Positions 928 through 54,661 of a stretch of 64,000 nt of DNA are shown here, one piece after another. The notes beneath the pieces were generated by a model. That model saw only the letters and a list, made by a program, of their open reading frames with translations. It searched no databases and was not told where the DNA came from. A program made the position numbers and the translations under genes. This stretch comes from Octopus vulgaris (lineage: Eukaryota), in the NCBI GenBank assembly GCA_951406725.2, contig OX597815.1, positions 158,534,001-158,598,000 of the forward strand. The letters are read 5' to 3'. The first letter of the stretch is position 1. Every line of letters starts with the position of its first letter.

Positions 928-1213
928 AGTGAATATGCGTGTACTCCATCCCATGACGCTGTGGTAGGTTATACAAAGGGGAAACATGTCGCCCCTCAAA
1001 ATAAGAGTATAGGAAACATCGCAAAGCTGTGCCACGGGGAAATATTGATATATCGGGTATAGCTGATCATGTATGCAAAAATGGAGACTACCTCCTCCTA
1101 TGGGATTAAGTTAAAATAATAGACACAGAACACCACTGGAAAATACGAAAACTAAAAAAAGCAGCATGTAGGAACCGGTATTAAGGAAGGATAGGAGAAT
1201 ATTAGATTTATAA
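928..1213 (+). pseudogene. Penelope-like element GIY-YIG endonuclease, decayed C-terminal fragment
   Basis: Manual translation across frameshifts gives VYSIP*RCGRLYKGETCRP/LKIRV*E/HRKAVPRGNIDISGIADHVCKNGDYLLLWD*VKIIDTEHHWKIRKLKKAA...EPVLRKDRRILDL* (stop 1211-1213). This fits the PLE pattern VYxIPCxCGxxYxGETxRxLxxRxxEH...SxxAxH...WxxVKII...RxxKE. Confidence 0.8.
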
Positions 1214-1236
1214 GCCCTAAAATTCACTGCATATAC

Positions 1237-1430
1237 CACGGGCATATAGTATAGTGATTAAGAGCGCGGGCTACTAACCACAAGATTCTCAGTTCGATTC
1301 CAGGCAGTGATAAAAAATTACCTTAGGAATGAGAACCCAGTTTCGAAATTTCCCCAAGAAGGCTGGAGGGTATATTATCCGAAACAACAAACAAGATGAG
1401 GACAAATATCCGTCAATTGTAAATAATGTA
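1237..1430 (+). mobile_element. tRNA-like head plus deleted hammerhead module in the PLE 3' region
   Basis: It has a degenerate A box (TAGTATAGTGA) and a B box GTTCGATTCC at 1292-1301. It is collinear with 48679-48997 apart from two short deletions in the ribozyme and the missing internal microsatellite. Confidence 0.8.
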
Positions 1431-7019: not shown

Positions 7020-7379
7020 TGTATCAAACCCACTTGAATTTTATGAACTTGACATTCAGTTGTCATTAACAACGTAGTTAAATATAAGTTTTTTCCCCTT
7101 TTGAAAATATTTCATTTATATTTTAAACACTTGGTGTTAAAATACAGATGTATCTGACATTTTATAATATATGAATATACACACACACACAAGCACACAC
7201 ACAGACGAACACACACACAGACGAACACACACACATAGAGACATGCACGCACACACATACACGCATTATGAAATAAGTAGACTTGTACATGAGAACTTCA
7301 CATGGAGACACACACGCACGCAGACAGACATGTGTATGTATGTATGTATTTTTGTATGTAAGTATCTTTGTATGCATGC

Positions 7380-7484
7380 CATTATTCAGTTTATTTCAAG
7401 ATTTCTTGCCAATAAAGGACCGGTTTGTAACCTAGATCCAAGGCTCCTTCATTGGAATTTCAACGGCAACAACAGGGCATTTTT
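7380..7484 (-). mobile_element. short repeat with a hammerhead-like core
   Basis: The minus strand reads CCAATGA-AGG-AGCCT-TGGATCT-AGGTT-ACAAAC-CG-GTC, a degenerate CUGAUGA/stem II/GAAAC/GUC arrangement. It is homologous to 1437-1550. Confidence 0.5.
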
Positions 7485-7508
7485 CTTTACCTGCATGTAT
7501 GTATGTAT

Positions 7509-48678: not shown

Positions 48679-48757
48679 CACGGGTATATGGCGTAGTGGT
48701 TAAGAGCGCGGACTACTAACTCAAGATTCCGAGTTCAATTCCCAGCAGTGACCTGAA

Positions 48758-48789
<32 letters not shown>

Positions 48790-48997
48790 ATAATAATAAT
48801 AATAATAATAATAACAACAACAACATCGAAAAATAACTAAGGAATGAGAACCCAGGTTCTAAATTTCCCCAAGACACCTGATGAAGGCTGGAGGGTATAT
48901 CAGCCGAAACGTTGTGTTAACAACAAACAAGAAGAGGACAAATATCCATTGAATGTAAATAATGTACATAATTGCTCATCTCTTAAATATAGAACTG
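48679..48997 (+). mobile_element. tRNA-headed, hammerhead-containing short element (putative PLE-linked SINE)
   Basis: A box TGGCGTAGTGG (48689-48699), B box GAGTTCAATTCC (48731-48742), a (TAC)n(TAA)n spacer, and a hammerhead at 48873-48918. Homologous to 1237-1430. Confidence 0.8.
48873..48918 (+). ncRNA. minimal type-I hammerhead ribozyme, apparently intact
   Basis: GACAC-CTGATGA-A-GGCTG-GAGGGTATAT-CAGCC-GAAAC-GTT-GTGTT. Stem I is GACAC/GUGUU, stem II is 5 bp, stem III is the palindrome AACGUU, and predicted cleavage is after 48913. Confidence 0.85.
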
Positions 48998-49075
48998 GAA
49001 TAATAATAGTATTTTTATATAAGCTTAAAGCTTATAAACTCGGCGCCGTATAAAGAACAAGTCGCACTGAACTAC

Positions 49076-49182
<107 letters not shown>

Positions 49183-49257
49183 CGGTGTGAATGGTTTTTT
49201 ATACGGCGTCGAGTTTATAAGCTTATAAAAAAATACTTTATTTATTAAAAAATGCTG

Positions 49258-54484: not shown

Positions 54485-54580
54485 AATATATATATATTTA
54501 TATATAAATATAAATACACGCATATATATTATATTAAAAAATATATGCATATATATTCATGTATACATATATATTCATGT

Positions 54581-54661
<81 letters not shown>

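Follow-up and report, generated by a model that had tools for sequence, protein, structure and literature searches.

The window analysed here, a 64,000-nucleotide stretch of the Octopus vulgaris genome, carries near its left end a 5'-truncated, dead copy of a Penelope-like element (PLE) on the forward strand (936..1430), which comprises the end of an open reading frame (ORF) and a 3' terminal repeat (pLTR). With family position 0 set at the C of CACGGG (window position 1237), the start of a tRNA-like head, this copy aligns to family positions -359 to +252 with several internal deletions. Its left part (936..1213, +) is the decayed C-terminus of a GIY-YIG-type endonuclease (EN) that ends in a TAA stop at 1211-1213 and, in alignment to the family majority, is broken by in-frame stops and a frameshift and has lost 55 nt by deletion. 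A stop-to-head spacer (1214..1236, +) leads into the tRNA-Arg-like head (1237..1310, +), within which tRNA homology begins at 1240 and the acceptor stem is unpaired. The head includes a box A-like motif (1247..1257, +) with three substitutions relative to the family form and a box B-like motif (1291..1301, +) that retains it. Further along, inside the pLTR, lie the ATG (1329..1331, +) that opens the 835-aa frame of the family and the remnant of a minimal type I hammerhead (1358..1385, +), in which stem II remains, deletions of 10 and 11 nt having taken out both core strands. Since its hammerhead and box A are decayed, this copy cannot be the working example of the family. Judged by its sequence, it is a dead fragment of an abundant, formerly autonomous octopus PLE.

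An earlier note on this DNA had correctly placed the end of the stop codon at 1213, CACGGG from 1237, and the 3' end of the element at 1430; the start that it gave, 928, moves to 936, where homology begins. The spacer of 23 nt that it reported is right for this copy, but the family length is 26 nt, 3 nt having been deleted here. Similarly, a microsatellite is missing from this copy by deletion, but an (AAT)n tract lies between head and hammerhead in the family, and the hammerhead module described after the head survives as a remnant, not as an intact module. A target-site duplication of the 936-1430 copy was searched for by eye and none was found. The spacer is faintly like the inverted start of the head (shuffle P 0.044); as a lead, it may be a decayed fold-back of the head.

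Several other repeats lie close by. By eye, ~324-438 resembles a MITE: it is a long palindrome, nearly perfect, whose loop is short. Upstream of the element stands a CORE-type tRNA SINE (~600-806, -), which has 29 matches in the window and 560 kb of sampled blocks taken together and whose head is identical to the PLE head at 45 of 73 positions. A second repeat family adjoins the 3' end of the element (1431-1600, +), occurs again at 7331-7490 (-), and ends in (ACAT)n; it contains a degenerate hammerhead-like stretch and an internal palindrome (1461-1504), and has nine matches in the DNA examined. A 70% match at 54515-54650 looked like a second family and was rejected as a microsatellite.

A solo pLTR of the same family is found at 48679..48997 (+), with head, microsatellite, ATG (48844), and hammerhead, and with a 3' end equivalent to family position +283. 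Its box A (48689-48699, +) has the family form and its box B (48732-48742, +) one substitution. A minimal type I hammerhead motif with stems I and II and a palindromic 1-bp stem III is intact at 48873..48918 (+), as it is in the family majority, Rfam giving no match; minimal hammerheads of this kind were already known from PLE pLTRs (PMC4209133). Directly after the solo unit, at ~49012-49235, inverted repeat arms flank a (TA)n/(CA)n core, again MITE-like by eye.

Walking upstream from the endonuclease, a check that the earlier note had called for, recovered a unit of ~2.66 kb that reaches the reverse transcriptase (RT) and runs in the order head, (AAT)n, ATG, hammerhead, remaining RT-endonuclease ORF, stop, 26 nt, and head again. 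The majority sequence (22-51 copies per block) forms a single open frame of 835 codons with an N-terminal domain, an RT with YVDD, and a C-terminal endonuclease; the frame starts at the ATG at +130, within the pLTR, and reads through the hammerhead. Close relatives match RVT_1 above the cut-off, and a CCHH motif (C27, C29, H48, H65) is invariant in 20 aligned sequences. None of three window frames and seven locus frames matched Pfam GIY-YIG, the core motif being a variant, and a PDB search returned nothing. An alignment was nevertheless obtained between 936-1213 and the part of the PLE protein P0100 that Pfam assigns to GIY-YIG (pairwise E 1e-5; 8e-14 for a better copy, L014), so that the GIY-YIG identity previously given to 928-1213 stands by alignment to this region and fails by Pfam profile. 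Among the traits of EN+ PLEs, the family displays pLTRs, partial tandems, inverted 5' arms, and two clusters of 3' ends, and by these features it is an EN+ PLE with a single ORF in which RT is followed by GIY-YIG. By inspection, the majority frame has no Cys-rich linker between RT and EN. In the Penelope/Poseidon clade the C-terminal EN is described as lacking the Zn-finger linker found in Neptune/Nematis (PMC8557442), and the absent linker appears to fit that type. A quick RT tree of 62 of 113 rows, in a set without any named PLE, placed unnamed proteins as the nearest neighbours.

Copies of the family differ from the majority by ~5% at non-CpG sites (2.6-9.9%, 70 ORF pieces), and no intact copy was seen among those examined. 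The closest relatives, 66-76% identical, are known as proteins. A relative at 57% identity (P0003) likewise reads through its own hammerhead, and the N-termini of P0003, P0244, and P0248 (~57% identity) are all in frame through it, so that constraints on RNA and on protein overlap there. Scans for the DNA of sister families gave one distant locus in metagenomes, none in viruses, and eight distant PLEs (37-46% identity) in genomes. PLE genes also occur in contigs labelled as bacterial genome bins (L362-L369), one with a frame unbroken over the matched region; these are probably contamination from animal hosts. A fragment of another PLE family in the same genome (L047:402-773, -) has 39% protein identity.

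The junction of endonuclease stop and tRNA-like head recurs across loci. Among the 30 best loci for the query 928-1430, a set biased by the query, the stop-spacer motif and box A are both present in 24, this locus included, and stand at the same distance in 19. An independent set was drawn with a foreign endonuclease protein, P0188, as the 30 best of 150 matches; in all 30 the endonuclease runs on into the head, the exceptions in detail being two rearranged junctions (L344, L356) and one locus without the stop (L360). Contigs from sequencing runs of a second organism label bridge the junction as well. The recurrence that had been put forward as a check is thereby confirmed, and the idea of a chance SINE insertion behind the stop codon, confined to this locus, for which nothing speaks except the resemblance of the head to octopus SINE heads (45-47/73), is refuted by the independently picked loci and the second-label contigs and retains a vanishing probability. 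The head is not a chance sequence: the genome has 1,292 exact occurrences of a 28-mer taken from it and none of the reversed control. In 56 fixed-interval 10-kb blocks (560 kb) seven loci were found, every one consisting of pLTR pieces without ORF, which extrapolates roughly to ~35,000 loci in the 2.8-Gb genome (Poisson range ~14,000-72,000). Both the family majority and a complete copy (below) bear out the earlier proposal that the head lies within the pLTR of a formerly autonomous PLE, and tandem pLTR-ORF junctions do exist among the long copies.

The head was compared with tRNAs of 11 sampled isotypes, for which Arg(NCG) was fetched deliberately, and Arg was the best among those tested: 50-51 of 73 positions are identical to genomic tRNA-Arg(ACG/TCG), at a score of 70 against a mean of 20 and a maximum of 45 for shuffles, and the head is closer to tRNA-Arg(ACG)/(TCG) than to nine other sampled isotypes. 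Neither a tRNA nor a hammerhead was called by ARAGORN and Rfam; motif and alignment are the basis of both labels, and the boxes were assigned by the usual A and B consensus patterns. A relaxed ARAGORN run gave noise and was discarded. The family majority retains both boxes while the acceptor stem stays unpaired, and conservation of the boxes is about that of the whole head, without excess. In folding, none of six stretches, the head included and three being neither head nor hammerhead, did better than shuffles. A 5-bp palindrome spans the start of the head (-4..+7), with an ATT at -6..-4. A translated head was sought among 269 proteins with no convincing case, and the A/B-box pattern is absent from the 3' sequence of five distant relatives. 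Genes for tRNA-Arg(ACG/TCG) form tandem clusters in the same genome (G000), at C2:211.89-211.91 Mb, C20:5.23-5.24 Mb, and C1:130.86-130.90 Mb; the period of one cluster is ~206 bp.

Copy 5' ends were read, with box B as the anchor, for 94 of the 100 places that head the list of 28-mer occurrences, all of them on contig C1; of the six places omitted, four are close neighbours of a kept one, and five loci gave two arms. The start lies at the head in 69 of these 94 head-bearing copies: 59 begin at -5..+8, a spread of 14 nt, and 10 apparently begin at -10 to -15, by inspection as fold-backs at the head palindrome. Sixteen begin at +11..+41, one at -17, and eight extend more than 200 nt into the ORF; the ORF is missing upstream in 86. 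Starts peak at -4/-3, -1, and +3 rather than at one base, and a clean purine start rule, sought by eye, was not found. An inverted piece of the element lies on the 5' side in 57/94. The boundary at the head is sharp and not the product of random truncation, though 14 nt wide. Long copies agree in part: of the four in which the 5' pLTR reaches the head, only two start at +1 (L141 and L169), one starts at +39, and one is a tandem. A complete copy, L121 (G000:C2:109993500-110003400), runs from head through pLTR, ORF, and stop to a second head, from which it follows that a full-length template also began at the head. Several repeats of a 27-nt piece that straddles the pLTR end and the ORF continuation occur in L121, which looks as though priming had restarted at that point.

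Clustering of copy starts at the head is the pattern that an internal promoter predicts, and the head is likely to mark the RNA start of the element. The boundary might alternatively be an artefact of RNA processing at the tRNA-like fold, of the palindrome stalling or redirecting the RT, or of an endonuclease cutting the upstream ATT. The largest single peak (11/94) does fall at +3, the position of the mature-tRNA 5' end, the palindrome lies across the boundary, and the anole element PAc cuts an ATT beside its ORF-pLTR junction (PMC11167929), an ATT also lying just upstream of the head here. Yet the acceptor stem is unable to pair and the head folds no better than shuffles, 31 of the 94 copies begin at -5..+1, upstream of +3, and the eight copies that pass the site go on for more than 200 nt; an artefact of any of these kinds is thus highly improbable.

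At the other end, 278 matches reaching past +230, not de-duplicated, fall largely into two clusters, with 100 ending at +250..+259 and 122 at +280..+293. The second cluster peaks at +283..+289, which is 111-117 nt past the start of hammerhead stem II. In PAc, according to the parts of PMC11167929 used here, the ORF opens at the start of hammerhead stem II and reverse transcription begins 111-118 nt later, two RT start sites bound an optional tail, and the template requires the first 172 nt of the ORF. Taken with the 5' ends, this geometry is consistent with a simple life cycle in which the copy at 936-1430 is a dead copy of a formerly autonomous PLE whose tRNA-Arg-like A/B-box head probably served as an internal pol III-type promoter where its RNA began. 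The RNA of the element would start at the head, and, by analogy with PAc, the element protein would prime reverse transcription at two internal 3' sites. From the first repeat, a primed copy would reach the RNA start after only ~290 nt; the product would be a solo repeat like the one at 48679, in many cases with a folded-back arm. Priming in the second repeat would proceed through the head into the ORF, and its products would be truncated, as at 936-1430, or on rare occasions full-length. A solo repeat would not contain the downstream part of the ORF that a PAc template requires and would found no SINE lineage. The lack of T-runs may let RNA polymerase III read through the whole unit, and the protein could be translated either from this uncapped RNA or from a polymerase II read-through RNA.

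Free units might be regarded as a SINE, and the earlier note had proposed a separate candidate SINE with a partner element. A free unit does possess, by sequence, the tRNA-related head with box A and box B of a tRNA-derived SINE; it does not form a non-coding lineage distinct from an autonomous partner. Comparison of 76 ORF-linked with 108 solo heads, the latter partly selected by an exact-match pattern, found 4 of ~250 positions different at P<0.01 and none after correction. The majority base is identical in both sets at every flagged position, and polymorphisms at +107 and +253 are common to both. Free units moreover carry the first 40-50 codons of the ORF. Shared variants and these codons are the grounds on which free units are better read as solo pLTRs, and they do not support the proposal of a separate SINE; the free units are likely by-products of the coding element. 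A pLTR tail follows the head in 80/94 copies. In the other 14, the 620 nt that were examined show the head ending in (AAT)n; another repeat is inserted in some of these and one is ORF-linked, and a minor independent class of head plus (AAT)n may exist. One and the same unrelated repeat sits behind the (AAT)n tract, downstream of the head, in five loci (L257, L270, L288, L181, L013), as though another element used the pLTR microsatellite as a target for insertion.

A related possibility is that the head drives only short pol III RNAs that are copied in trans, the coding RNA coming from polymerase II read-through, and that free units are a true PLE-dependent SINE. Such a SINE would account for the many head-bearing copies with no ORF upstream (86/94), for the seven of seven loci in the 560 kb of blocks that are pLTR pieces only, and for the 14 tail-less heads, and it has a precedent in schistosome SINE-like elements that join a pol III promoter to a hammerhead (PMC6765202). 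It is nevertheless rather unlikely: no diagnostic variant divides solo from linked heads, solo units stop inside the ORF at PLE priming sites, a complete coding copy also begins at the head, and solo units carry less of the ORF than the first 172 nt that a PAc template must contain (PMC11167929).

As to which polymerase was used, the 2.7-kb unit has no T4 run at all (P 0.03 by synonymous-codon shuffling of the ORF, 0.05 by dinucleotide and 0.008 by mononucleotide shuffling). Nor does the unit have a non-canonical T-rich terminator, canonical and non-canonical ones together being absent from the ORF at a joint P of 0.01; the wider non-canonical pattern was added after the first test. Against this, T-runs are missing from two shorter control PLE frames (1.2 and 1.0 kb) of seven, the other five having the expected number, and G4 runs are absent from the unit too; the terminator signal is modest. 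By inspection, T4 runs are present in the 3' region of three of five headless relatives. Copies start 2-15 nt upstream of box A, and tRNA-type promoters start transcription just upstream of box A at such a distance. Three raw, unstranded RNA-seq runs revealed no start site. From the geometry of the boxes and the lack of a T-run terminator over 2.7 kb, we infer that the element probably used RNA polymerase III.

RNA made by polymerase III is uncapped, which is awkward for an ORF of 835 aa. This translation problem would be solved if the head were a passenger, a tRNA or SINE head captured at the RNA 5' end, with an ordinary internal polymerase II promoter in the pLTR setting the start. Known PLE promoters are indeed LINE-like internal promoters (PMC2377424; PMC8557442), that of D. 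virilis Penelope being TATA-less and internal (PMC2377424); pieces of small RNAs do get added to retroelement 5' ends (PMC4494074), and the boxes lack excess conservation. A captured head is unlikely all the same, considering that the majority keeps both boxes although the acceptor stem is unpaired, that copies begin 2-15 nt upstream of box A, and that the whole unit is without T-runs while three of five headless relatives have T4 in the 3' region. Returning to the head as the element's own polymerase III promoter, the fullest version, an autonomous coding retrotransposon that had switched to a tRNA-derived promoter, transcribed by polymerase III end to end over a terminator-free 2.7 kb and shedding tens of thousands of SINE-look-alike repeats from its RNA 5' end, is a tentative proposal, possible but somewhat short of an even chance.

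Polymerase III promoters are a mark of non-coding parasites such as SINEs and TRIMp3 elements; a PLE that codes for protein and yet starts at such a promoter would be exceptional and would raise the question of how its RNA was translated. If end-to-end reading by polymerase III were true, the line between SINEs and autonomous elements would blur, and one way for a PLE-dependent SINE to arise would be shown. Thousands of copy ends appear to record the start of the RNA together with the two priming sites, in agreement with the geometry of PAc in vitro, so that genome data by themselves suffice to test the PLE priming model. At a rough estimate, ~35,000 octopus loci would be mislabelled as SINEs though they are PLE terminal repeats.

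Among known systems, the closest are EN+ PLEs of the Penelope/Poseidon clade, above all Anolis PAc (Poseidon_Ac; PMC11167929) and D. virilis Penelope (PMC2377424), which, in the portions of these reports relied on here, share with the octopus element a single ORF of RT and C-terminal GIY-YIG, a pLTR with a minimal hammerhead that overlaps the ORF start, a promoter assigned to the pLTR, two 3' ends ~30 nt apart, and inverted 5' arms. In the octopus element, by contrast, a tRNA-derived A/B-box head opens the pLTR where copies start, the ORF opens upstream of the hammerhead, and T-runs are lacking; those portions describe no tRNA-type head for either PAc or D. virilis Penelope. Schistosome Sm-alpha and Sj-alpha likewise place a pol III-type promoter before a type I hammerhead in a short repeat, and are reported as non-coding, often tandem, and self-cleaving (PMC6765202), whereas the octopus module serves an autonomous element as terminal repeat and as 5' coding end, with solo units dispersed and often in inverted pairs. 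The TRIMp3 elements Cassandra, Helenus, and Ajax also have a promoter for polymerase III, one of small-RNA origin, inside a terminal repeat; these are short, non-autonomous LTR elements, whose autonomous partners have been argued to require polymerase II (PMC10886601). The octopus element is a coding PLE with its own RT and EN, and hence falls outside that group. Animal non-LTR retrozymes are short hammerhead repeats related to pLTRs, defined by tandem arrays and proposed to be non-autonomous derivatives of PLEs (bioRxiv 10.64898/2026.07.22.740005). In the available part of that text the words tRNA, promoter, and octopus do not occur, and no head-to-tail hammerhead arrays were seen among the 94 copies or the seven sampled loci, which are solo units and inverted pairs instead.

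The octopus SINEs OR1 and OR2 have an Arg-like head and share the genome with the PLE, and have a different body and tail. Both are presumably SINEs of tRNA-Arg origin. OR2 has been cited as a CORE SINE (PMC4758252). Of the 73 positions compared in the PLE head, slightly more agree with tRNA-Arg genes (50-51) than with the heads of the sampled CORE-type octopus SINEs (45-47), and for that reason no SINE is named as its donor. A tRNA-headed PLE was not found in the open literature searched, though Repbase, Dfam, or the supplements of PMC13282606 may hold the family; the octopus repeat annotation itself does not mention a hammerhead in the part of its text covered here (PMC13282606). In these sources, as far as they extend, PLE pLTRs with hammerheads, a pol III promoter joined to a hammerhead, and small-RNA promoters in terminal repeats of non-autonomous LTR elements are each described, and a tRNA-headed coding PLE is not among them.
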